NCBI GenBank assembly: GCA_018401675.1
Contig: JAGYKM010000001.1
Span: 105,695 to 169,694, forward strand
Length of the DNA stretch: 64,000 bases
Direction: 5' to 3'
DNA from: Alphaproteobacteria bacterium
GTDB taxonomy: Bacteria; Pseudomonadota; Alphaproteobacteria; 16-39-46
The notes under the pieces were generated by a model. The model was given only the letters and a program-made list of their open reading frames with translations, was not told where the DNA came from and did no database searches. Below are positions 8,313-41,395 of this stretch, one piece after another. A program made the position numbers and the translations under genes. Positions within the stretch are counted from its first letter, which is position 1. Every line of letters begins with the position of its first letter.

Positions 8313-9074
8313 ATGAGTGAAAAACCCCCAGAAACGGGAAACGAAGAAGCGCGCATGTTGAGTTTAGACCGAGTGGGAAAAACCTATGGAAAAAGGCCTG
8401 TTCTGAGGAATATTAGCCTCACTATCCGCCGGGGGGAAGCTGTAGGCTTATTGGGCCCCAATGGCGCAGGAAAAACTACCTGTTTTTATATCATCATGGG
8501 TCTTATTCGTCCTGACTACGGCCAAGTTTTGCTGGATGGAAATGACATCACCATGCTGCCAATGTATCAACGAGCCCGATTAGGGGTGGGTTATTTGCCC
8601 CAAGAAGTATCGATTTTTAGAGGGTTATCAGTTGAGCAGAATATACAAGCTGTACTCGAAATCTCTGGCTTGTCTCGAGACGAGCAAGAAGGTCTTTTAG
8701 ACCATCTTTTGGCTATCTTTTCTATCGGTCATTTGCGCCGTGCGTCAGCCATGTCGTTGTCGGGAGGAGAGCGACGGCGTGTAGAGATTGCTAGGAGCCT
8801 TGCAGCCCGTCCCCAGTTTATTTTACTGGATGAACCTTTGGCAGGTATAGATCCCATTGCCGTGGGCGAGATAAGGGACGTAATCAGTCAGCTGAAAGAA
8901 TTAGGGATAGGTGTATTAATTACCGATCATAATGTCAGAGATGCCTTGGGGATCGTTGATAGAGCTTACATCGTCCATGAGGGGGTAATTATGGCAGAAG
9001 GGCCCCCAGAAGAAGTGACAGTCCACGAAGAGGTGAGAAAGGTCTACTTGGGAGAAAACTTTCAGCTCTCCTAG
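8313..9074 (+). CDS. lptB: LPS export ABC transporter ATP-binding protein LptB
   Basis: Walker A 'GPNGAGKTT', signature 'LSGGERRRVEIARSLA', Walker B 'ILLDEP'. This is near-identical in pattern to LptB. Confidence 0.9.
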   Translation: MSEKPPETGNEEARMLSLDRVGKTYGKRPVLRNISLTIRRGEAVGLLGPNGAGKTTCFYIIMGLIRPDYGQVLLDGNDITMLPMYQRARLGVGYLPQEVSIFRGLSVEQNIQAVLEISGLSRDEQEGLLDHLLAIFSIGHLRRASAMSLSGGERRRVEIARSLAARPQFILLDEPLAGIDPIAVGEIRDVISQLKELGIGVLITDHNVRDALGIVDRAYIVHEGVIMAEGPPEEVTVHEEVRKVYLGENFQLS

Positions 9075-9512: not shown

Positions 9513-12236
<2,724 letters not shown>

Positions 12237-12342
12237 CTTTTTAGCGTACAGAAATAAATCTCTATACTCATTAATTAAGTACAGCCTCATAATCTTACAT
12301 ATTTCTCTTTCTTAGGCAAAGATACAGAATGCTTTAGAATGA

Positions 12343-12458
12343 CTTGGTGGTTTTAGCGAGGGTGTCACACACGATCCCATACCGAACTCGACAGTGAAAC
12401 CCCTCAGCGCCAATGGTACTATGTCTTAAGGCATGGGAGAGTAGGTCGCTGCCAGGTC
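12343..12458 (+). rRNA. rrf: 5S ribosomal RNA
   Basis: 'cttggtggttttagcgagggtgtcacacacgatcccataccgaactcg...gcatgggagagtaggtcgctgccaggtc' is a canonical 5S. It is flanked by a 12-bp perfect inverted repeat (aatgctttagaa / ttctaaagcatt) and then a T9 run. Confidence 0.95.
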
Positions 12459-12683: not shown

Positions 12684-12712
12684 TTGAACTTTTAGAAAAG
12701 CTCTAGTATATA
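12684..12712 (+). promoter_or_regulatory. Putative sigma70 promoter (TTGAAC-17-TATATA) for the UIM-protein gene
   Basis: ttgaac at 12684-12689, a 17-nt spacer, tatata at 12707-12712, in an AT-rich region. An RBS 'aggag' sits 7 nt before the ATG at 12793. Confidence 0.4.
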
Positions 12713-12792
12713 TTCTTTTATAGTATGCGTATTACTAAATGTCGTTTGGAATTTTATTATTGTATGCGGTTATTTTATATTAGGAGTTATTT

Positions 12793-13800
12793 ATGAAATT
12801 AAAAATTTTTATGGCATCCCTAGCCGGATTGCTTGTGGCTATGGAGCTTATTCCTCCCGTTGCGTCTGCTATGGAGCAAGATCCCAGCGAACAATCAGAA
12901 CGAGCGCGTCGCCGAGCCCAGGTGCTTGAAGCAGCGGAAAGACGAGCTAGAGCTCTTCAACAACCAACGGCTGATGCTGATGTCGTGACTGAAGATTTCG
13001 CAGTTACGCCGGGTGCATTTGGGTCCCAAGTTCCCGGATTAGGTTCTTTGGCGGTACATGAAGAGCCTTCTGATGATGAGGAATCTCTTCGTGAAGCCAT
13101 TGCGATGTCCTTGGGCGCTGTGGGAGACTTGTCCCTTGCTGCGCGAGATTTATCCGCCGTTGCTTTGGTGCCGTCGATGCCGACGGTGGTTGATCAAGAA
13201 GAGGGAGCTGCCTACTTGGAACCCTCAGCGGCATCCGCCGGATGGCCTGGTCAACGCCCTCTAGCCCCTAGAGATTTGAGTGTTCTTTCGGAGGAAGAGC
13301 AAGTGCAGCGTGCTATGGATGAATCCATGGGGTTGCCTTTAGCTCCAGTCCACAATATTGGTCAAGAACAGACGCGCCAACCAGACGCTCCTTATGAAGA
13401 TATTCTTGTTCCCCAAGGTCCCGTCCATGCTAATGCTCAAACATTGGAGTTGTTATCCCATATTCGAGCCCAAGGAAGGCATGAGGTCGTTAAAGAGTAC
13501 GAACGCGTTACCTCTTTAATAGCCGAAAGTTTATCCGCCGAGGCTGAAGTGGATGCACTGAATGCTTCTGCGATTCAGGACGCTCTTCTTCTCGATGTGC
13601 GAGCTGATATGAGAAGAGCTGCTCAGGAGTTAGGTGTTCAAGGTATCGATTTTCTGGGAGATGAAGGGTTATTGGAGGCCATTGAAGCCGCTCACTTTAC
13701 CCAGGTAATTATTCCGATGCTTAGATCAGAAATGCAGTTTACTTTGGGATTGCGTGAAGAGGAAATAGTGCGGATCATGGGAGATCTTGAGATTCAATAA
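12793..13800 (+). CDS. Secreted/membrane-anchored hypothetical protein with two ubiquitin-interacting-motif (UIM)-like segments; candidate host-interaction effector
   Basis: N-terminal hydrophobic signal 'MKLKIFMASLAGLLVAMELIPPVASA'. UIM-like 'DDEESLREAIAMSLG' and 'SEEEQVQRAMDESMG' match the acidic-x-ϕ-xxAϕxxS pattern. The sequence is rich in A/E/R and acidic residues. Confidence 0.5.
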   Translation: MKLKIFMASLAGLLVAMELIPPVASAMEQDPSEQSERARRRAQVLEAAERRARALQQPTADADVVTEDFAVTPGAFGSQVPGLGSLAVHEEPSDDEESLREAIAMSLGAVGDLSLAARDLSAVALVPSMPTVVDQEEGAAYLEPSAASAGWPGQRPLAPRDLSVLSEEEQVQRAMDESMGLPLAPVHNIGQEQTRQPDAPYEDILVPQGPVHANAQTLELLSHIRAQGRHEVVKEYERVTSLIAESLSAEAEVDALNASAIQDALLLDVRADMRRAAQELGVQGIDFLGDEGLLEAIEAAHFTQVIIPMLRSEMQFTLGLREEEIVRIMGDLEIQ

Positions 13801-13849: not shown

Positions 13850-13886
13850 CAGGCCGTTTTGGAATATCCCAAAACGGCCTGTTTTT
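13850..13886 (+). terminator. Rho-independent terminator downstream of the UIM-protein gene
   Basis: Sequence caggccgttttgg-aatatccc-aaaacggcctg followed by ttttt. Confidence 0.7.
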
Positions 13887-14152
13887 GTCAGGTGATGGTA
13901 TCGGTTAGTTTCATAGGGTTGGAACTCCCCTTGATATAAAGTAAGGGTATATATGATCGAGCACGCAAAAGACGCGAGTTTGTAAGATAAGGAAGAAAAT
14001 TCTTGAAAGGTTTTTCGATAACTGTTGCATAGGCGGTCGAAACTATGTATTTTGAGGGCAAGTAGTAAAAAAGGCGTAAAAAAGGTGGGCAGTGTCCGCC
14101 TCTTTTTTTTTCTAAGGGTCTTTAAACTATAATAATAGAAAGAGGAAAACGC

Positions 14153-14719
14153 GTGGAGAAAGTAACGCTGTTTCAGGAGCAAATAGGGCCTATGCTTGAG
14201 CAAGCTGGGTATGTGTGTATCCTTATGGAACTCAAGGGGCAAGGCCGAAAGATCTTAGAGGTAAGCATAGAGCGGTTAGATGCAGTGTCTGTGGGAATAA
14301 GAGATTGTGTGGCTGTTACCCGTTTAGTGCAAGCGGCTTTAGAAGAGAAAGATCCTTTTGGGGTCGACTTTTCTATTGAGGTGAGTTCTCCAGGACCCAA
14401 TCGGCCCTTGGTAAGCGCTATTGATTTTGAGAGATTTAAAGGGCAACGTATAAAAATTGTTTTAAAGGAAGCTATTTTTGGGCATAAGGTGTATGAGGGT
14501 ATGCTCCAAGGGCTGAATGACGGCGCAGTGGCTTTAGAAAAAGAGCCAGGTTCCCCAGACCCACAAGAGGGGGGGCAGTGGCCAAGTACAATCCCTCAAA
14601 ATTTTATAAAGAGTGCGTGTTTGGCGCCTCTGTCGGAAAAGAAGCGATCTGAATCCCAACACTCGAAAGGGAATGCTTCTAAAAGTCCATCACGGTTAAC
14701 AAAGGTAAAAGAACGATGA
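14153..14719 (+). CDS. rimP: Ribosome maturation factor RimP
   Basis: 'IEVSSPGPNRPL...FERFKGQRIKI' matches the RimP motif. It heads the conserved rimP-nusA-infB operon. Confidence 0.8.
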   Translation: MEKVTLFQEQIGPMLEQAGYVCILMELKGQGRKILEVSIERLDAVSVGIRDCVAVTRLVQAALEEKDPFGVDFSIEVSSPGPNRPLVSAIDFERFKGQRIKIVLKEAIFGHKVYEGMLQGLNDGAVALEKEPGSPDPQEGGQWPSTIPQNFIKSACLAPLSEKKRSESQHSKGNASKSPSRLTKVKER

Positions 14720-16251
14720 GAGATACGATTTCCACATCTGGTGTGCGTCCCGAATTACTCCAAGCGGCAGAAGTAGCGGCGAGGGAAAAAGGGATTGATC
14801 GTAGCGAAATTATCGCGGCTATGGAATTGGCGATTCAAAAAGCCGCCCGTAGTGTTTATGGTGGTGATCTCGATATCAGAGCGCATATTGATACCAAATC
14901 AGGAGAGATACAGATTTGGCGCTATCGGGAAATTGTACCTGAAGTCGGAGATGATGCCCAGCAAATAACCTTGGAAGAGGCTCAAAAAATAGATCCTGAT
15001 CTGGTTGAAGGGGGCACTTTAAAGGAGCTTTTGCCTCCTATTGAGCTCGGGCGTGTTTCGGCTCAAACGGGCAAGCAAGTTATCGTACAGCACATTCGTG
15101 AAGCCGAGAGAGAGCGCCAGTACATTGAATTTAAGGACCGAGTGGGAGATATCGTAAGTGGTTTGGTAAAGAGGGTAGATTATGGATTCGTTACTGTAGA
15201 TTTAGGAGGCCGTGCAGAGGCTATCTTGAAAAAAGAAGAAGGTATTCCAAGAGAAACTTTCAGGCCTGGAGATCGGATACGAGCATACGTGGTTGATGTC
15301 CAGCGAGAAACCCGAGGACATCAAATATTTTTGTCTAGAACCCATCCGCAATTCATGGCGAAACTATTCATGCAAGAGGTTCCTGAGATCTATGATGGTA
15401 TTATTGAGATACGGTCTGTTTCTAGAGATCCGGGAAGTCGTGCTAAGATTGCCGTAACCACAAATGACTCATCTTTGGATCCAGTAGGATCTTGTGTTGG
15501 AGTGCGAGGGGTGCGGGTACAAGCAGTGGTAAACGAGCTTCAAGGAGAGAAGGTAGATATCATTTTATGGGCTCAAGATCCGTCTACTTTTATTGTTAAT
15601 GCTTTGACTCCTGCAGAGGTGTCTAAGGTAGTGATTGATGAAGAGTCCAGGGCAATTGAGGTGGTTGTTCCTGACGATCAGCTGAGTATTGCTATCGGAC
15701 GGCGTGGTCAAAACGTCCGCTTGGCGTCTATGTTGACGGGGTGGACCATAAACATAACCACTGAGTCAGTTGAGTCTGAGAGGCGGTCCAACGAAATGCG
15801 TGAGCGTACGGCCTTGTTCAAAGATTCATTGGATGTGGATGAAGTTATTGCACATTTGTTGGTCAACGAAGGCTTTAATACTTTGGAAGAGATTGCCTTT
15901 GTGGAAAAAGAAGAGCTTACGGAGATAGAAGGTTTCGATGAAACCATTGCTCAAGAGCTCTCTCAGCGCGCTCAAAAAGCCTTGGAGAAAAAATCTGTGG
16001 CTCAAGAAGAAGAATTGAGCGCTTTGAAAATGTTGCCGGATTTGACAAGCCTTGAAATTTCTTTGGACGTGTTGGTTCCCTTAGCTCGGAAGGGCATTTT
16101 GTCCCGGGAAGATTTAGCGGATCTTGCGGCTGACGAAGTAGTAGAATTGTTGGGTTCAGAGGTGCTCTCCCTCGATGAGGCGCAGGTTTTGATTATGAAG
16201 GCCCGTGCTCATTGGTTTGATGAGGACAATAAACCCAGTGAGAAAAAGTAA
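14716..16251 (+). CDS. nusA: Transcription termination/antitermination factor NusA
   Basis: 511 aa with S1 and KH domains and C-terminal acidic repeats. It overlaps the rimP stop (ATGA) in conserved operon order. Confidence 0.9.
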   Translation: MRDTISTSGVRPELLQAAEVAAREKGIDRSEIIAAMELAIQKAARSVYGGDLDIRAHIDTKSGEIQIWRYREIVPEVGDDAQQITLEEAQKIDPDLVEGGTLKELLPPIELGRVSAQTGKQVIVQHIREAERERQYIEFKDRVGDIVSGLVKRVDYGFVTVDLGGRAEAILKKEEGIPRETFRPGDRIRAYVVDVQRETRGHQIFLSRTHPQFMAKLFMQEVPEIYDGIIEIRSVSRDPGSRAKIAVTTNDSSLDPVGSCVGVRGVRVQAVVNELQGEKVDIILWAQDPSTFIVNALTPAEVSKVVIDEESRAIEVVVPDDQLSIAIGRRGQNVRLASMLTGWTINITTESVESERRSNEMRERTALFKDSLDVDEVIAHLLVNEGFNTLEEIAFVEKEELTEIEGFDETIAQELSQRAQKALEKKSVAQEEELSALKMLPDLTSLEISLDVLVPLARKGILSREDLADLAADEVVELLGSEVLSLDEAQVLIMKARAHWFDEDNKPSEKK

Positions 16252-24829: not shown

Positions 24830-27202
24830 ATGCAAGCTGTGAATAAAATAGTAAAGATGCTCTTAAGTGTATGCGTGGTTTTCCTAATGGCATCGACCAT
24901 GGTCATGGGGATGCATCAAAGAGGCGGCATGACATTGGATGACGACAGAAGGCCCAGTGAGCATCTGTGTCCTATTACCCTTAACGTGATGAGAGACCCG
25001 GTTGTTGCCGCGGATGGACACTCCTATGAAAGAACTTCTATTGTGGAACAATTTAAACGTAGGGTCCAGAGTCCCATGACAGGCTTGCCCATAACCAGGC
25101 ACCTTTTTGATAATAATGCCCTACGAACAATGATTAGAGAATGGCAAGCGGGTAGGCAAAGTGAGCCTTGTGAGCTAGACACACGAGAGGCAAGCAGCAT
25201 AGCTCAACGGGTCAAAGATGAGTTTGAAAGACATGCGTATCTTTTAACCTCAGAGAAAGGTGCTTTAGGGCAGCATATTGTTGCTTTTTTAGGCAATACG
25301 GGAGCAGGCAAGAGTACCTTAATCAATTTTCTGGCTGGAAAAGCACTTAAGGTAGGTGACTATGGGGAGGATTACGTCTTAAGAGATAGTGGGGACACAA
25401 CAGCCATGATCATTGGACAAGGAGGAAGATCAGAAACCCTTTATCCAAAGTCTATTGATGTGGGAGAACTGCGATTTTTTGATCTTCCGGGGTTTAATGA
25501 CACCGATGGATCAGAGCGGAACTTAGTCAATGCAGCCTTTATTAGGAAGATTCTTTTGGATGCAGAATCGGTACGTTTTGTTTTTGTTGCGGGACAAGAT
25601 CAGTTTACGTCGGATCGGAGTGCTTCTATAAGAAAGATGTTTCAGTCCATTAATCGTCTATTTGTGGGAGAAGAAGAGATCAATTTTACGGATAATGGAA
25701 TATTTGTTGCGACAAAAGTGACTTGTGCTGCGGATAGGGACATAATCCCCTTTTTGTTAAGAAAAACAGATTCTTCTGACAAAGAAGAGCTGCAAGAGCA
25801 GTTGGATGCTTGGTCGAATAACGACAAAATAGGTCGTATGTTTCATCCTTTGCTTGGCGCATCCAATGAAGCCATGGGCGATGAGATCCTAAGACGCATC
25901 CGAAACGTGAGACCAGTGAAGGTTCGAGGCGTTAATGTAAGTGCTCTGTATCCACCCGAAACAAAAACAGCTTTAGAAAGAATGTTTTCGAGTATGATGG
26001 AAGGCGCGTTAGAACAGAAGAGAGCAGCCCCTTTAGAAACACTCAGTCAGTACAACGAAGCCATAAGAGAATACAGAGACGAAAGATTTTGGGAACTGTT
26101 GGATGCTGATCTTTGCGTGAAGGAGCAGGCTATGAGATTGCTGAAAGAGTTTTGCATTACGCCTTACACTAAAGCCCTTAAAGATTTTGAAAAAAACGAG
26201 GCAATAAGGCATCAAGCGCACATTCAGAATCTGGAAGAGAAGAAGCAAGCTCGGGTGAGCGATATTGAGGATAGAACGGAAGAGAGAGCCAAGAGGGTTA
26301 TTGCTTCCATATTTCCAAGACCACAAGGAGAAGATGTTGTGCCTTTTGATTTTGCCTATCACAAAGACTACTACGAAGGGGTATGTGGATCAGTATCAAT
26401 CACCCAGCTGGCTACTGATGCCACGGAACAAGAGCTCGTGAGACAGCATTATGCCGGTGTCATCAGTCGTCATAGTCACGACCAGATGATGCGTTGGCAG
26501 GAAAGATTTAGTGGGGTTGCGGAGCTATTCAGGGAAGTTGCCCAAATGAAAAAGGAATTAGAAGCCTTGCGTGGAGAAAAGGCTGAAGGTGCCACGCTTG
26601 TGGCGCAACCTGAGAGGGTATCGATCCCAGAAGTTGCTTTGGGACACGAAGCGGTTTACGAAAGATTTTTAAAAGGAGTCTTGGTTTATCGCCCAAACCC
26701 AAACAGCGATGAGGGAAAAATAGAGCTCCCTATTGCCGCGTTAGAAAATCCCCTTGAGGGCACCTTTGATTTATCTAACTGTGGTGATGCGGGACAGTAC
26801 TTAAGTATAGCGACAGGGTATCGCAAGTATGTTAATGCTGAAAATGCCAAGAAGGTTGAAATCTGGATCGCACCGAGATTTTTGATAGAAAAGGACATAA
26901 GAGGACCGGCCCGACATCTAGCACCTATCATGGGGGCGTGGGATAAGACTACCGTCCCGGTTGGCCTTTTCTTCAATTGGGGAGGATGGAATGAAATGGA
27001 TTCTTTTGATTATGCCGTCACCCACACGCGCAAGAAGCTATGTAGCATGCATATGCACAGCGTGTATGCATCAGCTTCCGGCGCAGGATTAAACGGGCAT
27101 AAGCCACAAAACAGTTACATCTGTATGGCAAAAGAGTCGAGGTGCCCGGTATGCGTCGTGGCGGAGGTTGGTCATCCAGATCATTTCATGTTTCGTTTAT
27201 GA
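24830..27202 (+). CDS. Chimeric U-box (E3 ubiquitin-ligase fold) + P-loop GTPase (AIG1/GIMAP-/MMR_HSR1-like) protein with a coiled-coil and unknown C-terminal domain; candidate secreted effector
   Basis: U-box: 'CPITLNVMRDPVVAADGHSYERTSIVEQF...LPITRHLFDNNALRTMIREW' aligns motif-for-motif with eukaryotic U-boxes (CPISLELMRDPV..GQTYER.SI..W...P.T...L.PN..LR.LI..W). GTPase: G1 'GNTGAGKST', G3 'DLPGFND'. The N-terminus is hydrophobic. Confidence 0.8.
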   Translation: MQAVNKIVKMLLSVCVVFLMASTMVMGMHQRGGMTLDDDRRPSEHLCPITLNVMRDPVVAADGHSYERTSIVEQFKRRVQSPMTGLPITRHLFDNNALRTMIREWQAGRQSEPCELDTREASSIAQRVKDEFERHAYLLTSEKGALGQHIVAFLGNTGAGKSTLINFLAGKALKVGDYGEDYVLRDSGDTTAMIIGQGGRSETLYPKSIDVGELRFFDLPGFNDTDGSERNLVNAAFIRKILLDAESVRFVFVAGQDQFTSDRSASIRKMFQSINRLFVGEEEINFTDNGIFVATKVTCAADRDIIPFLLRKTDSSDKEELQEQLDAWSNNDKIGRMFHPLLGASNEAMGDEILRRIRNVRPVKVRGVNVSALYPPETKTALERMFSSMMEGALEQKRAAPLETLSQYNEAIREYRDERFWELLDADLCVKEQAMRLLKEFCITPYTKALKDFEKNEAIRHQAHIQNLEEKKQARVSDIEDRTEERAKRVIASIFPRPQGEDVVPFDFAYHKDYYEGVCGSVSITQLATDATEQELVRQHYAGVISRHSHDQMMRWQERFSGVAELFREVAQMKKELEALRGEKAEGATLVAQPERVSIPEVALGHEAVYERFLKGVLVYRPNPNSDEGKIELPIAALENPLEGTFDLSNCGDAGQYLSIATGYRKYVNAENAKKVEIWIAPRFLIEKDIRGPARHLAPIMGAWDKTTVPVGLFFNWGGWNEMDSFDYAVTHTRKKLCSMHMHSVYASASGAGLNGHKPQNSYICMAKESRCPVCVVAEVGHPDHFMFRL

Positions 27203-27215
27203 ACTAAAAAAATGA

Positions 27216-28152
27216 TTAAACAAGTGACCCAGCAGCCACGCATGGACCCAGACTCCAACATGAAAAGAGACTGGGCAGAGACGTTTGCACACAAGATGCA
27301 AACGTCTCGATCGATGATAATCCTAATTTCAGCCAGCGTGTCCATTGATCGATGTACCGACGCAACCGCTTTGTTTTATCAAGGTCAGAAGAAGCCTGTG
27401 CGCGCAACGATAGGAGAAGGTTTTTAAAATAGTCATCACAAGGAGGGGCTTCGTTCACTTGATATAAAGATATATCCCGTGTTTCTGCTTTTTTTTGATA
27501 GCGACGGGAATTGGTCTTCCTGGGCGGGCGCTCATAAAGCGCGCTGGCACGTTCGTGAAAACGCCTGATAGTTTCTTTGGCAAGGAGTATTTTTTTGTGC
27601 TCAAAGTAATAAGCTAAAAAGGTAAAGCCTTGGCTTATTTTTCCAATGTAAGTTTTTGAGGAGTGAAGGTGTAGTTTTAGTTCTGCAATAATCTTATGGG
27701 TACGTCTAACAACCTTACGCAAAGCGGTTTTACTTTTGGCAAAAACCACCCAATCATCCATAAAACGGGAATAAAAAACCATCTTGAATTGTCCCCATGG
27801 CTTGATCAAGAGGCATTAAGTCGATAGCACCAAGCAAGGGAGATCAAGGACTCCCCATAGGAATGCCTTTTTCAAGATAGTCATAGAAAATGCCGCCATA
27901 GGTTTTCGTACGATGGCATGCTTTGCTAATAAGGCTTAAAAGAGCAGGATTCTTAATGTAAGATTCAAGAATGCCCATTAAAACGTCAAAGTTAATGGAG
28001 TCATAGTACCCTTTAATATCACTCCGCATCACGTAATGATAATTAGGTAAAGCCCTATGAGTATCGTGATTACACATTATGGCCTTTGATATGATAACAG
28101 GATTATGGAATATGGTGGCCCATTTGAGATTCAATGGCTTGGGTGATGAGCT
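27216..28152 (-). pseudogene. Degenerate reverse transcriptase (group II intron / retron-like RT), 5'-truncated and frameshifted; retroelement remnant
   Basis: Two out-of-frame ORFs carry RT motif 3 'SDIKGYYDSINFDVLM', motif 4 'GIPMGSP', motif 5 'RFMDDWVVF' (YADD-type) and motif 6/7 'LHLHSSKTYI...GFTFLAY'. The N-terminal motifs 0-2 are absent or degenerate, and no intron domain V was found. Confidence 0.6.
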
Positions 28153-32017: not shown

Positions 32018-33609
32018 ATGCAGGGAGTTGCCAAGAAAATAACCCACGAGGGGGGGCGATGGGGAGATAAAATTTGGTTTTTCTCCGGTGCTTCTTGCCC
32101 TTGTTATTATAGGAATATTGGGAAAAACGGCCTCTGAAAAGAACCCGAGAAATGTTCTTGCCGGCATAGTTTTGCAGATGTTGCTCAACAAATACTTCCC
32201 ACTGTGGTTGATGTTTCAGGAACGAGCGCCCCAAGTGAATCGGGGTCGGATGGTGGCTCTTTGGGAGGCGCGCCTCATGGGGATCCCCGGCTTGCTCCAA
32301 GTGGCGGGCATCGCCGCTCCTTGGGAGGCTTTGTAGTAGACCCTTCAGGATATATTTTGACCAACGGACATGTCATTTACGAAATAGAGGCAGTGACCGT
32401 ATCCTTATCTGATGGATCGGTATACCCAGCGGAAGTTATTGGAAAAGATGAACGCACTGACCTGGCTCTTTTGAAATAAAAACGCCTATGAAATTGCCTT
32501 CATTGTCCTGGGGCGACTCCCACCAAGCGCGTGTAGGAGACTGGGTATTAGTGGCAGGAAGTCCTTTTGGATTTGGACGGTCGATTTCTGCAGGTATTAT
32601 TTCAGCTCGAGCTCGTGATATTTCTAAGATGTCGGGAGAGGGAGGACCAGAGGGTTTATTTGTGGGTTATGTGGATGATTTGATTCAAACGGATGCGGCT
32701 ATTAATCTGGGCAACTCAGGAGGGCCCATGGTGGATGTCCAAGGAAATGTGATCGGCGTTAATGTGGCTATTTATTCACCATCGGGGGGAAGTGTAGGTA
32801 TTGGTTTTGCGGTTCCGGCTTGTGTAGCTCAACGGGTGTATGAAGCTTTACGCGCAAAGGGCCATGTGTCTTATGGGTGGATAGGCGTGAGAGTGCAAGA
32901 GGTGGACGATTTTATAGCGACTTCATTGAGGTCACAAGAATACTATAAAAAGGGCGTCAAAGGCGCTTTGGTGAGTGGTATAGACCCGGAAGGATCAGCA
33001 GCAAAAGCTGGTCTGGAGCTTTCGGATATTATTCTTTCATTTGGGGGGCACCCCATAGAATCCTACGATCGTCTCACGCGCATTGTGGGTGAAACGAGTC
33101 CTGGAAAATCCGTTTCAGTTCGTTTTTTACGTGATGGAAAGGTTCTTGATAGAAAAGTAAGGGTGGAGGCATGGTCTTTAGATAAAGGTACTCAAAAAAA
33201 CCTTCCATCTCATGTAGAGCCCTCTTTTCTTCCCTATTCTGCCGATATGCCTGGTTTATTTAGAATGGATCTTTTAGGGATATCTTTGCTCCCATTAACT
33301 GCTTCAATGAGTGGAGCTTTGTACCTACTTGAGGGGACAAAAGGACTGTACGTGGTCCAAAGCAATGGAACAGGTGAGACAGTCTCTATGACGATGGGGG
33401 GTATAAGGGCTGGAGATGTAATTGTGGAGGTTAATAATGAACCAGTGGGGTCTCCTCAGCGCCTGAATGATCTTTTGGCTGCGTGGCAGAAGGAAAATAA
33501 GAGGACGCTTTTGCTAAAAATTTGGCGGCAAGGTCAAGTTCATTACATCGGGGTAGCTTTGCCTTCAGAAAAAAAAGATCATGAAATGAGTTCTAATCTT
33601 TCTTCCTAA
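32018..33609 (+). pseudogene. htrA: Periplasmic serine endoprotease HtrA/DegP (trypsin + 2 PDZ), interrupted by 2-3 single-nucleotide frameshifts (genuine pseudogene or homopolymer sequencing errors)
   Basis: The pieces are in three frames: a signal region 'LLALVIIGILG', 'SFADVAQQILPTVVDVSGT...YILTNGHVI...DERTDLALLK' (catalytic His), then 'GDSHQARVGDWVLVAGSPFGFGRSISAGIISA' (catalytic Ser) plus PDZ domains. The breaks are at the G7 run 32050-56, at ~32135-32170, and at the A-run 32477-32482. Confidence 0.75.
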
Positions 33610-35090: not shown

Positions 35091-36332
35091 TTACTTATCA
35101 CCACCCACTGGGGTTTTTCCAGAAAACTTTTGTTCCAGCTTTTGGAGGAGCCTTTCCGTTTCAGCATTGCTCGACGGAGTGCGCTTCGGTGCCGATAAAG
35201 TTGCTGATAACGGAACACGGGCATGGTTTTTTTGAAGCCCTATTCCTGGACGCCTCTTGCCCTTAGTGCCTGTATTGGTAGGAGAGAGAGGCAGACTCCT
35301 TGATAGCTGATCTGAAGAATAATCGGAGATCCCTTGAGCGTCAGGAGCGAGTTCCGCTTTTGCCGGTTCTTCATCCCTAGCTATTGTACTTTCCTGTTGT
35401 GTTATTCCAGATGCTTCTTCTGACAGGGGCACCACAGGCAAGGCTCTTTGAGGAAATCTTCTGGCAGTCGGTATATTGGCGTAAGCTACTTTAAATGTCT
35501 CAAAAGACTGCAAATCCTGATCTGAATAGGGAAATCCTGTTTCTTGAGATCCTAGATAGATAGGCCCCTTTACGTCTTCATCAAAATGCTCTCCCAGAGC
35601 GGCATAAAGTTTGCTAAGAGCGGGCTTAGCTTGATCCCAGATGGCAAAAAGTTCAGGATCAGATGTGGGAAAAAGAACCTTGGGGTTTTTTAAAGTGGTA
35701 AATCGGTATCCTAACCCAGCGCTTTCAAAGAGATCAGGTTTTTCTACCAGTAATCGACTTAACCGGACAGGGCCATAAGCCTCAGCTAAGCTGCTAAAGT
35801 AATCACTCTTGAGTCCTTGCTCTGGGGCCTCTAGTGAAGCATCCAATTCTTCGGTCAAAGCACTAGAGGCGAGAGCGGAATAGTGAGCCTGGCGTGAGGC
35901 AGAAAATTTTTGCTCCAAGCGGCGCCCGTTACTGTCTCCATATAGCCATGAAGCGTTATAAGGGATCACACCTGATGATTTTTGGAGGCGTGATTCAAAG
36001 GTGTCTCTAATCTCTGAAAGCGTGGTTCGCGCTTCTTGAGAGAGGGGTTGAGTTTCTGTATGCTTATCTATGAGGCCAGAAAAGAGAGAGATTTGATTAA
36101 GAAATAGTAAATCTTCACCGATATCGCTAATGCTTTGTATGTGCTTTGTATGTGCGGCATCATTGGCTTCAACTACTTGAGGGGCTGGTAGAGCCTTTGC
36201 AACTCTTTCTGCACCAGGGTCTTCTGGATTTACTTGCGGTTTGACTGCCATAAGAGGGTTTCCAGTCAAAGACAAAACAAGTGCAGCGAAAGAAAGAGAG
36301 GGTGTATATATTCGAGATGATTTGTTATTCAT
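35091..36332 (-). CDS. Secreted hypothetical protein (413 aa; signal peptide, Pro/Ser-rich C-terminus); candidate surface or effector protein
   Basis: N-terminus 'MNNKSSRIYTPSLSFAALVLSLTGNPLMA'. No recognisable domain. It contains an 11-bp tandem duplication at 36131-36152. Confidence 0.4.
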   Translation of the reverse strand: MNNKSSRIYTPSLSFAALVLSLTGNPLMAVKPQVNPEDPGAERVAKALPAPQVVEANDAAHTKHIQSISDIGEDLLFLNQISLFSGLIDKHTETQPLSQEARTTLSEIRDTFESRLQKSSGVIPYNASWLYGDSNGRRLEQKFSASRQAHYSALASSALTEELDASLEAPEQGLKSDYFSSLAEAYGPVRLSRLLVEKPDLFESAGLGYRFTTLKNPKVLFPTSDPELFAIWDQAKPALSKLYAALGEHFDEDVKGPIYLGSQETGFPYSDQDLQSFETFKVAYANIPTARRFPQRALPVVPLSEEASGITQQESTIARDEEPAKAELAPDAQGISDYSSDQLSRSLPLSPTNTGTKGKRRPGIGLQKNHARVPLSATLSAPKRTPSSNAETERLLQKLEQKFSGKTPVGGDK

Positions 36333-39490: not shown

Positions 39491-41395
39491 ATGGTTTTGA
39501 GGTATGGTGATGGATTATCGCGTAGAGGAGTAGGGTATAGGCTGTTTGGCCTGGCCGTAGGAATAGGTTTTTGTTTTCCTAAGATCAGTCTGGCCACTCC
39601 CCAAGCTTCTTACTATGAAACCAGACCCATTATGATTCCTGTTTCCACTTCTTTTATAGAGTCTGAAAGTGCCTCTCTTCCTGTTCCCGGAACGAATAAT
39701 AATCCCCTGTATCCCTTAAGTCTATTTGAAGCTCTTCAAGTGAGCCCGGAGTTGTCCGCCGTTAAAACGGCAGGTACTGAAAAAGTACTTTTTCCTGGCG
39801 CACCCTCGGGGGGCAGTTTGGTGGTCTGGGAAGGGGTGGTTCTCAATGATCCATCCACGGTTCGAGGTTCTTTTGATTTTTCCCTACTAAAAGGAGCTTC
39901 TTTTCAGACAGTGAATCTTGAGAGAGGAACAAATCCACTGGTGACCACGGCGGCTATGGGGGGTATTATGACTTTGGAAACTCCCGAGAGACTGTTCCTT
40001 GCCCAGAAAATGGATAGTTCTTCTTTTGTAGGTCAAGGCGACTTGGATTCTATGGGAGGAAGATTTGTTCAGTTAACTCAATTTGTGCCTTTTTCTCAAG
40101 GTGCTTTATATCTTGGAGGTTCCTTTTCCGACACACCTAGATCCCCTGTGGGGACAGCCCCTTTACGAAAACAGTCTCGGAGGAAGGATGAATCTTTATC
40201 CCTTACAGGAAATTATGGATCTGTGGATAAGACCCAATTGGTTTTTCTATGCCGAACCGCTGATGAAAAATTTGATGATGTCTATGATTCCCAAGGTACT
40301 TTCCAAGGTGCTTCTCACTACCTTATTGGTCGTTTAAAGAATCTTTCCCAGGATGGACGGACACGCTCAAGCATGTCGATTGGGCAAATTATGTATGATC
40401 GAAGGGCTTATCATCAAAGTCAAACTCTTTCGAAATATAAAGGTATGAGTCAAACTCTGAAGGTAGATAGCACTCATATTGTGCAAAAAGGGATTCAACT
40501 TCAAGGGGGAATTGAAACTGAAAGGGAATCAGCTAAAGATTATGGCTTCTCAGAAGTGAGGGATACTATAAGCCTTTTTATGGGGCCCAAAGTGAGGTTT
40601 CACGAATATTGGACAAGTGAAGGGTCAATCAGAGTGAATCAAGGTCCCCATGATACCCTAATGGGTATTATGACGGGTGTTGGTTACCAGAGAAAGGGTG
40701 ATGGGTTCTTTATTAAAGCAGATGTGGCCCAAAAAAGACCTAGCCTTTATTATCTGCATGCACAAGACTATTCTTTACCTCAATTTGGGACCTTGCCTCA
40801 GATTTCTTATCCTGTAGGTAACGCGTCTTTAAAAAAGGAGTCCTCTTGGGGGGTACTGACTCGGGTGAGCAAAGGCTACTGGGAAGGCCAAATGGTAGGG
40901 GGGTTCGAGATTTTTTACAGAAAATTTGAGAACTATATTTATCCTACAGCAACCATTCCGCGGACCTATACGCAAGGTGGTGGGGCAAGCACCTGGGGAT
41001 TTGGGCCTAAAGTACAGATTGGAACTCACTCAATTCGGTTTTTGAGTCAAATTCAGTGGTTTCAGGTGTCTCATAGCTCTCAAGTACCGGACTTAGTTTT
41101 GAGTCCAGCTCATGCTCAGGCTCTCAATCAGCTCTCTTATGACTCTCCAGACACGACCTCTCCAAAGTTCGGAGGAATCGTGTCTATTACCACTCACTAT
41201 AAACCCTATTCGACTGTGGGCCAAACGAAGAGCTATTCATTAGTGACCATGGGGATGCACTATGGCATTCAAGAGAATATCCTTGGATTTGTGCGTGTGA
41301 ACAATCTTCTGAATAAACGGATTCAAGACCCCTATGATTCTCTCTTGGAATTGGATCCTTTTAGTTTTAGGGTAGGTATCAAGATAGAACTCTAA
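39491..41395 (+). CDS. Large hypothetical outer-membrane/beta-barrel-like protein (634 aa), uncharacterised
   Basis: N-terminal hydrophobic signal 'LFGLAVGIGFCFPKISLA' and alternating amphipathic beta-strand-like segments toward the C-terminus. There is no TonB box and the protein does not end in a terminal Phe/Trp. Confidence 0.3.
   Translation: MVLRYGDGLSRRGVGYRLFGLAVGIGFCFPKISLATPQASYYETRPIMIPVSTSFIESESASLPVPGTNNNPLYPLSLFEALQVSPELSAVKTAGTEKVLFPGAPSGGSLVVWEGVVLNDPSTVRGSFDFSLLKGASFQTVNLERGTNPLVTTAAMGGIMTLETPERLFLAQKMDSSSFVGQGDLDSMGGRFVQLTQFVPFSQGALYLGGSFSDTPRSPVGTAPLRKQSRRKDESLSLTGNYGSVDKTQLVFLCRTADEKFDDVYDSQGTFQGASHYLIGRLKNLSQDGRTRSSMSIGQIMYDRRAYHQSQTLSKYKGMSQTLKVDSTHIVQKGIQLQGGIETERESAKDYGFSEVRDTISLFMGPKVRFHEYWTSEGSIRVNQGPHDTLMGIMTGVGYQRKGDGFFIKADVAQKRPSLYYLHAQDYSLPQFGTLPQISYPVGNASLKKESSWGVLTRVSKGYWEGQMVGGFEIFYRKFENYIYPTATIPRTYTQGGGASTWGFGPKVQIGTHSIRFLSQIQWFQVSHSSQVPDLVLSPAHAQALNQLSYDSPDTTSPKFGGIVSITTHYKPYSTVGQTKSYSLVTMGMHYGIQENILGFVRVNNLLNKRIQDPYDSLLELDPFSFRVGIKIEL

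Follow-up and report, generated by a model that had tools for sequence, protein, structure and literature searches.

The P0001 gene and its surroundings

A 64,000 nt stretch of alphaproteobacterial DNA (GenBank assembly GCA_018401675.1, contig JAGYKM010000001.1, positions 105,695 to 169,694; hereafter the window) was analysed around P0001, an orphan open reading frame (ORF) encoding 335 amino acids at 12793–13800. The predicted protein combines a Sec-type signal-peptide-like N-terminus, two segments resembling ubiquitin-interacting motifs (UIMs) and very little lysine, and it may be a ubiquitin-binding protein aimed at a eukaryotic host. Positions are in window numbering and on the forward strand unless marked (−).

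The gene follows the 23S (9516–12238) and 5S (12343–12457) rRNA genes, from the latter of which it is separated by 335 nt; lptB ends at 9074, upstream of the 23S gene. On its 3′ side lie rimP (14153–14719) and nusA (14716–16251). A Shine–Dalgarno sequence, AGGAG, was read from the sequence at 12782–12786, which leaves 6 nt to the ATG. Its position speaks for initiation at the first ATG and hence for translation of the hydrophobic N-terminus. An intrinsic terminator is located at 13850–13887, consisting of a stem (13850–13881; inverted repeat I1) of 13–14 bp with eight G–C pairs, followed by TTTTTG. The gene thus has a terminator of its own, as had been proposed in a first-pass annotation of this DNA. 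The σ70-like promoter placed by the same annotation at 12684–12712 (TTGAAC and TATATA separated by 17 nt) was not confirmed: 8 of 12 positions agree with the consensus, the final T of the −10 hexamer is absent and the site was not among the results of the promoter scan. No RNA elements were found in the flanks of the gene. A second terminator-like hairpin (14083–14101), followed by nine T residues, stands directly upstream of rimP; the approximately 200 nt between it and the terminator of P0001 carry no annotation, and a permissive Rfam scan of 13887–14152 gave no significant match.

P0001 is a real gene with native composition, as judged from its intact 1,008 nt frame, its Shine–Dalgarno sequence, its terminator, and its native codon usage and third-position G+C content (GC3). 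The first-position G+C content (GC1) is 0.69 compared with a GC3 of 0.396, the pattern of a real coding sequence. Against the 48 other ORFs of the window the GC3 is typical, and the codon-preference score (0.101) is within the range and above the median. The identical protein is also present in an independent (Logan) assembly of run SRR14300309. That the frame is non-functional or decaying, in a genome under reduction, is very improbable: its orphan status, the low coding density of the genome (81.8%) and the large amount of predicted disorder would suit such an origin, whereas the intact frame with its good Shine–Dalgarno sequence and strong terminator, the codon preference, the GC1 far above GC3 and the second assembly all speak for a maintained gene.

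Searches for homologues returned only P0001 itself, whether by a word-indexed search of 5.8 billion proteins, by an exhaustive phmmer search over 1.84 billion cluster representatives or by a metagenome contig scan. In all, about 15 billion proteins were covered. One extra match (P0002) was a repetitive eukaryotic sequence aligned on a low-complexity stretch and was discarded as spurious. A search with the C-terminal part alone was empty, self-match included, and is uninformative. No Pfam, NCBIfam, PHROG or PADLOC family was assigned to the whole protein.

The position of the gene had been taken as a sign of insertion into an otherwise tight rRNA–rimP synteny. The comparison did not bear this out: none of 13 related loci has rRNA within up to 10 kb upstream of nusA, and the two closest relatives (72% NusA identity) carry an S9-type peptidase gene, and one of them also a priA-like gene, upstream of rimP. 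A foreign origin is likewise unsupported, as GC3 and codon preference match those of the window at large and the flanks carry no convincing repeats, the sole pair being T-rich and 71% identical. P0001 is lineage-specific and not visibly foreign.

Two UIM-like segments

Segment 1 (DDEESLREAIAMSLG; residues 94–108, 13072–13116) was recognized by the Pfam family UIM (PF02809) with 14.2 bits (E = 0.039) when submitted as an isolated 24-mer. Segment 2 (SEEEQVQRAMDESMG; residues 166–180, 13288–13332) was recognized by UIM_2 (PF23625) with 15.8 bits (E = 0.015). These were the only families reported for the isolated segments. Both fit the core UIM consensus of an acidic run, a hydrophobic residue (φ), two variable positions, Ala, three variable positions and Ser, as DDEES-L-RE-A-IAM-S and SEEEQ-V-QR-A-MDE-S. 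A third candidate, ERVTSLIAESLSAE (residues 227–240), was rejected: Leu replaces the invariant Ala and Pfam gave no score.

The frequency of such matches by chance was estimated by shuffling the mature protein 200,000 times. The pattern [DE][DE]x-φ-xx-A-xxx-S, which occurs twice in P0001, was found at least once with a probability of 0.012 and at least twice with a probability of 8 × 10⁻⁵. Across the ORFs of the window and of 80 related loci (655,141 residues), only three further matches were present, each of them single. The bare core φ-xx-A-xxx-S is common by comparison, with a probability of 0.19 for two or more occurrences.

A 99-residue fragment spanning both motifs gave 19.9 bits with UIM_2 over two stretches (E = 6.8 × 10⁻⁴), and RAP80_UIM and UIM were also reported. 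As controls, five canonical eukaryotic UIM 24-mers, all recognized by the Pfam scan, scored 18.9–27.5 bits; three of the five (18.9–19.9 bits) also fell below the curated Pfam cut-off of 21 bits. Four shuffled versions of the P0001 segments gave no UIM match.

A hidden Markov model (HMM) built from nine eukaryotic UIMs was run with filters off against 3,055 alphaproteobacterial ORFs (800,694 residues). P0001 ranked first with 19.8 bits (E = 1 × 10⁻⁴), and the runner-up scored 5.1 bits. Each motif was located separately by this model, with 12.0 bits at residues 94–107 and 12.8 bits at residues 166–179.

In the reciprocal direction, a profile made from the two P0001 segments only (A1) was searched against 177,635 distinct PDB sequences and returned 29 matches, 13 of them UIM chains. 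The top three include the tandem UIMs of RAP80/UIMC1 (3a1q_C, E = 8.8 × 10⁻⁴) and the UIMs of ataxin-3 (2klz_A, E = 0.0019), and the UIMs of Vps27, PSMD4/S5a and ZFAND2B were also retrieved. Most of the non-UIM matches are designed alphaRep or HEAT-like repeats, which resemble segment 1 only. A rival reading of segment 1 is that of a HEAT-like repeat unit, of PBS-lyase or alphaRep type, that has degenerated. In its favour, DDEESLREAIAMSLGAVGD is similar to D-E-D-x-x-V-R-x-A-A-x-x-A-L-G-x-I-G-D, the repeat of the designed alphaRep proteins 4xl5_C and 4zv6_A (E = 0.8–2), and such repeat proteins make up about a third of the reciprocal matches. The reading is the least credible of the explanations weighed here. 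P0001 would hold a single unit, with no tandem array of approximately 31-residue repeats; per-unit scores do not exceed 6 bits, Pfam reports no HEAT family for segment 1, segment 2 has no such resemblance and the UIM chains score better.

Several observations weigh against reading the segments as UIMs. The Pfam scan of the whole protein gave no match, and the scores of both segments and of the 99-residue fragment lie below the 21-bit cut-off. Acidic residues after the Ser are absent from both motifs (SLGAVGD and SMGLPLA), and the Pfam alignments span profile positions 1–14 of 17. The loss of these residues, with both motifs ending in S-[LM]-G, accounts for a deficit of 4–5 bits relative to canonical UIMs. 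The regular expressions and segment boundaries were also set after the sequence had been seen, from which the eukaryote-only HMM test is exempt.

The low scores, the silent whole-protein scan and the missing acidic residues would suit a P0001 with no link to ubiquitin, an acidic protein of the periplasm or envelope that evolves fast, is rich in Ala, Leu and Glu and has amphipathic helices that happen to fit an 8–11-residue consensus. A composition rich in Ala, Leu, Glu and Ser makes the bare core common, and there are no homologues to show purifying selection on the motif. Such a coincidence or convergence is a serious possibility, if on the unlikely side. It is opposed by the rarity of the paired motif once the acidic run is included, by the gap of 15 bits to every other ORF with the eukaryote-only profile and by the reciprocal retrieval of solved UIMs.

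The claim of the first-pass annotation that both segments match the UIM consensus therefore stands for the core, the profile scores of the isolated segments and fragment, and the reciprocal test; it does not stand for the curated cut-off, the whole-protein scan or the acidic residues after the Ser. Given scores under the curated threshold and the lack of the C-terminal acidic residues, formal membership of the UIM family is not established. The same annotation had named silent profiles together with orthologues in free-living relatives as the mark of a chance match; the motifs do score, and no orthologues were found in the collections searched. At the level of sequence, the two segments are confirmed as UIM-like, and far beyond chance. 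P0001 probably works like a tandem-UIM protein, and it is not claimed as a member of the Pfam UIM family.

Predicted export signal, lysine depletion and a possible host-directed role

The N-terminus of P0001 (residues 1–26, 12793–12870) was assigned from sequence reading and a hydropathy scan as a Sec-type signal-peptide-like segment, MKLKIFMASLAGLLVAMELIPPVASA, followed by MEQ. Its parts are a basic n-region (MKLK), a hydrophobic core of 13 residues (IFMASLAGLLVAM; 11-residue Kyte–Doolittle mean up to 2.5) and a c-region (ELIPPVASA) that contains Pro and ends in A-S-A (positions −3 to −1), after which cleavage is predicted. The segment has no twin-arginine motif and, having no Cys, is not that of a lipoprotein. 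The segment looks like a substrate of Sec signal peptidase I, in agreement with the signal peptide proposed earlier.

The mature protein of 309 residues contains 56 Asp and Glu residues, and P0001 is strongly acidic (net charge about −32). In the AlphaFold2 single-sequence model (mean predicted local distance difference test, pLDDT, of 49) the signal helix is followed by an Arg-rich helix at residues 31–55 (SEQSERARRRAQVLEAAERRARALQ; 12883–12957; pLDDT 62–67), by helices at 96–123 and 169–176 that carry the motifs, and by four helices across 212–334 (pLDDT 50–78) within a C-terminal helical region (residues 211–335, 13423–13797). The motif helices are flanked by coil, with pLDDT below 50 at both, and are set apart by low-confidence linkers rich in Pro, Ala and Ser that are probably disordered. 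We propose from the model that much of the protein is disordered. A SAM or Sla1 SHD2 domain was considered for the C-terminal region and discarded, as no significant sequence or fold match to the five-helix SAM bundle was obtained.

Two short sequence features of the linkers may be recorded. PYEDIL (13390–13407, residues 200–205, in the disordered linker after segment 2) matches two patterns, the Atg8-interacting core [WFY]xx[LIV] with acidic surroundings and the YxxΦ sorting signal. In P0001 chance would produce about two to three matches of this sort, so that it means little alone. DLS occurs three times between the motifs (GDLSLAA, ARDLSAVA and PRDLSVLS; 13123–13290, residues 111–166), and a repeated 4-mer is at about the chance level for a protein of this size.

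P0001 contains three lysines, two in the signal peptide (K2 and K4) and one at K234, leaving a lysine-free stretch of 229 residues by residue count (residues 5–233, 12805–13491). The mature protein thus has one Lys against 22 Arg. Among the 49 ORFs of the window it has the lowest Lys content (0.9%; window 6.1%) and the longest Lys-free run, the next being 149 residues. At the window-wide K/(K+R) ratio of 0.52, the probability of at most one Lys among 23 basic residues is 1.2 × 10⁻⁶. The depletion is not mutational, as the GC3 is native. Halophily (the source lake is saline) was ruled out as the cause of the acidity and low lysine, as the other exported proteins of the window have normal lysine: LptA, an LptC-like protein, an outer-membrane protein, a DsbA-like protein, an M48–TPR protease, two orphans and a U-box protein range from 4.6 to 11.1%.

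A long Lys-free run in a setting of normal Lys content is what defines a lysine desert. Long lysine deserts are enriched in disordered components of the ubiquitin–proteasome system, including ubiquitin-binding shuttle factors, and have been shown experimentally to prevent adventitious ubiquitylation (PMC10169902). By analogy, the depletion fits a protein that must avoid ubiquitination, and it provides evidence, independent of the motifs, for action where lysine-directed conjugation occurs. A chance resemblance to UIMs in a periplasmic protein leaves the depletion with no obvious reason.

The second element of interest is a fusion of a U-box with a dynamin-like GTPase at 24830–27202 (U-box PF04564, 47.6 bits, cut-off 21.4; Dynamin_N, 32.1 bits), which also carries an N-terminal signal-like hydrophobic segment. 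Its family comprises 145 homologues besides itself at E ≤ 1 × 10⁻⁵ in metagenomes and metagenome-assembled genomes (MAGs), and in all eight homologues read a hydrophobic N-terminus precedes the U-box. On three other contigs (L082–L084) the gene has an RVT_1 gene as its neighbour or is embedded in conjugative (Tra/MobA) surroundings, which gives it the look of mobile-element cargo; none of the three has a UIM-like ORF adjoining the U-box gene. In the window a truncated RVT_1 ORF (27216–27809, −) lies directly downstream and covers the last ~60 profile positions (29.4 bits, just under the cut-off); on L082 an intact RVT_1 gene occupies the equivalent position.

With the U-box protein, the genome of P0001 has a candidate ubiquitin ‘writer’, whose presence also speaks against a coincidental motif pair in P0001. 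As for the ubiquitin-manipulation toolkit proposed earlier, the U-box itself is real by its Pfam score, but there is no physical cluster: 11 kb and nusA, infB, rbfA, truB and pnp separate the two genes, which makes their link a genomic co-occurrence, not an operon or island.

Three other ORFs of the window may be mentioned. A 413-residue orphan (35091–36332, −) with a signal-peptide-like N-terminus is of low complexity and probably disordered, belongs to no Pfam family and has normal Lys (5.8%); it is another candidate secreted protein. A 634-residue ORF (39491–41395), also with a signal-like N-terminus and no Pfam match, is rich in Gly, Ser and Tyr, which suggests an outer-membrane β-barrel. 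An HtrA/DegP-like protease ORF (32488–33609) corresponds to the Trypsin_2 profile from position 65 onwards, with ~540 nt upstream in which no ORF is listed; it may be N-terminally truncated, frameshifted or mis-started.

The source genome has features typical of host dependence, with a small size, a low coding density and a 23S–5S unit (9516–12457) without 16S; neither 16S nor spacer tRNAs are present across the 64 kb. In reduced, host-dependent alphaproteobacteria the rRNA genes are typically unlinked. Together with the U-box protein, these features are indirect evidence of a life with a eukaryotic host. ‘Alphaproteobacteria bacterium 16-39-46’ has the closest NusA (72% identity). The source MAG, M30B67 (JAGYKM000000000), was recovered from metagenomes of the meromictic Lake Shunet sampled at 3.0–5.5 m (PMC8382752), among which is run SRR14300309. 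It comprises 1,294,506 bp in 44 contigs with 43.1% G+C, 1,256 genes, a completeness of 92.4% and a contamination of 2.7%, and is assigned by GTDB to a novel genus in the class Alphaproteobacteria, order and family 16-39-46 (PMC8382752, supplement).

Taken together, the motifs, the predicted export signal and the lysine content suggest that P0001 may leave the cell through Sec and bind the ubiquitin of a eukaryotic host by tandem UIMs, a reading that we consider about evenly balanced between right and wrong. The protein would then act outside the bacterial cytoplasm, on the ubiquitin system of the host. After Sec export and removal of the signal peptide it would reach a host compartment by a further route. 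Two short amphipathic helices, about 72 residues apart, would each offer a UIM face (acidic run, hydrophobic residue, invariant Ala and Ser) to the Ile44 patch of ubiquitin, which is the established mode of UIM binding. The flexible Pro/Ala/Ser-rich linker of ~57 residues could allow two ubiquitins to be bound at once, giving avidity for polyubiquitin or for multiply ubiquitinated targets. It would not serve as a linkage-specific ruler, as it lacks the fixed spacing on which the K63 selectivity of RAP80 depends.

UIM proteins typically undergo coupled ubiquitination. The lysine desert could spare P0001 this and other ubiquitination near host ligases or the exported U-box protein. The C-terminal helical region may provide an output function, for example localization, oligomerization or binding of a second partner. 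Masking of ubiquitin marks from host receptors would be a plausible, if speculative, outcome. Signal-peptide cleavage, export past the periplasm, ubiquitin binding, the host itself and cooperation with the U-box protein are all points that we infer.

Further observations count against a host-directed role. A Sec signal alone delivers a protein only as far as the periplasm, which is also what an envelope protein with coincidental motifs would predict, and no secretion system was seen in the 64 kb window. The source is a planktonic metagenome bin from lake water with no host on record. The structure models are of low confidence (pLDDT 49 and 60). P0001 has no homologues that could show conservation of the motif residues or of the lysine desert. 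Bacterial proteins with canonical UIMs are rare in the literature.

The same Sec signal would suit helices that bind, instead of eukaryotic ubiquitin, a bacterial partner (a β-grasp or ubiquitin-like protein, or another protein) in periplasmic or extracellular space, as might happen in competition between bacteria. It would place P0001 where secreted bacterial ubiquitin homologues act, and a β-grasp surface is what UIM-type helices recognize; the ubiquitin-like toxin BfUbb of Bacteroides fragilis is described in the cited accounts as acting in the periplasm (PMC5705921, PMC11467351). We nevertheless regard this as a slim prospect, since no ubiquitin-like gene was seen in the window, lysine avoidance is sensible only where a lysine-directed conjugation machinery is present, and the co-occurring U-box domain requires eukaryotic E2 enzymes.

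A more specific scenario, which we offer as improbable, is that the uncultured, reduced-genome order 16-39-46 evolved a lysine-free tandem-UIM ‘reader’ without a detectable donor and exports it through Sec with the signal-bearing U-box ‘writer’, the two forming a minimal pair acting on the ubiquitin of a protist host; the reader might be a decoy that masks marks from autophagy or sorting receptors.

The known means by which bacteria manipulate host ubiquitin are mainly ligases and deubiquitylases, and canonical UIM readers are barely documented in bacteria. Ubiquitin binding by P0001 would be a case of a eukaryotic linear motif that arose in, or was captured by, a bacterial orphan gene, and of lysine avoidance, familiar from the ubiquitin system of eukaryotes, in a protein of bacteria. 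It would also be molecular evidence for host association of the unstudied order 16-39-46. The combination of a motif pair, a lysine desert and a signal peptide could serve as a strategy to search for effectors in uncultured symbionts.

Comparison with known systems

Both the motif class and the bacterial mimicry of ubiquitin-system modules are already known; within that frame, P0001 adds a Sec-signal-bearing, lysine-free tandem-UIM orphan from an unstudied alphaproteobacterial order with a reduced genome. The eukaryotic tandem-UIM receptors S5a/Rpn10/PSMD4, Vps27/Hrs, RAP80/UIMC1, ataxin-3 and ZFAND2B share with P0001 two copies of an acidic run followed by φ-xx-A-xxx-S on short helices in flexible sequence. 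The two UIMs of S5a are separated by ~71 residues, close to the 72-residue spacing in P0001. Unlike these receptors, P0001 is bacterial and carries a Sec signal, has no VWA, VHS, Josephin or other partner domain and no homology to them outside the motifs; its scores are 4–5 bits lower and the acidic residues after the Ser are absent.

The statement of the first-pass annotation that UIMs are characteristic of bacterial effectors was too strong, as full-text literature searches gave essentially only the UIM-like region of PtpA from Mycobacterium tuberculosis, apart from ubiquitin binders of other kinds such as OtDUB. This secreted protein is reported to co-opt host ubiquitin via a UIM-like stretch (PMC5048167). 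PtpA, a tyrosine phosphatase, has a single and atypical UIM-like region, whereas P0001 has two near-canonical motifs and no recognizable catalytic domain; the two proteins are not homologous.

Among obligate intracellular alphaproteobacteria, a ubiquitin-binding module is described for OtDUB, a likely effector of Orientia tsutsugamushi, in the source cited (PMC7214410). This module (OtUBD) binds with high affinity as a folded domain, has no relation to UIMs and is attached to a deubiquitylase, whereas P0001 offers two candidate linear-motif helices and no enzyme domain. Host-dependent symbionts of protists (Chlamydiae, Legionella and Amoebophilus) are described in the cited accounts as having expansions of U-box, F-box and BTB proteins (PMC4209131, PMC7542358), and the genome of P0001 likewise has a U-box protein. 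Those repertoires consist mostly of ‘writers’ and ‘erasers’ (E3 ligases and deubiquitylases) in large gene families; P0001 is in contrast a putative ‘reader’ and a singleton orphan.

The lysine deserts of RAD23A, UBQLN1/2 and BAG6 resemble that of P0001 as long Lys-free disordered regions in which arginine is kept, and they occur in ubiquitin-binding proteins or ones that act alongside E3 ligases (PMC10169902). They are conserved across eukaryotic orthologues, whereas P0001 is bacterial and stands without orthologues in the collections searched.

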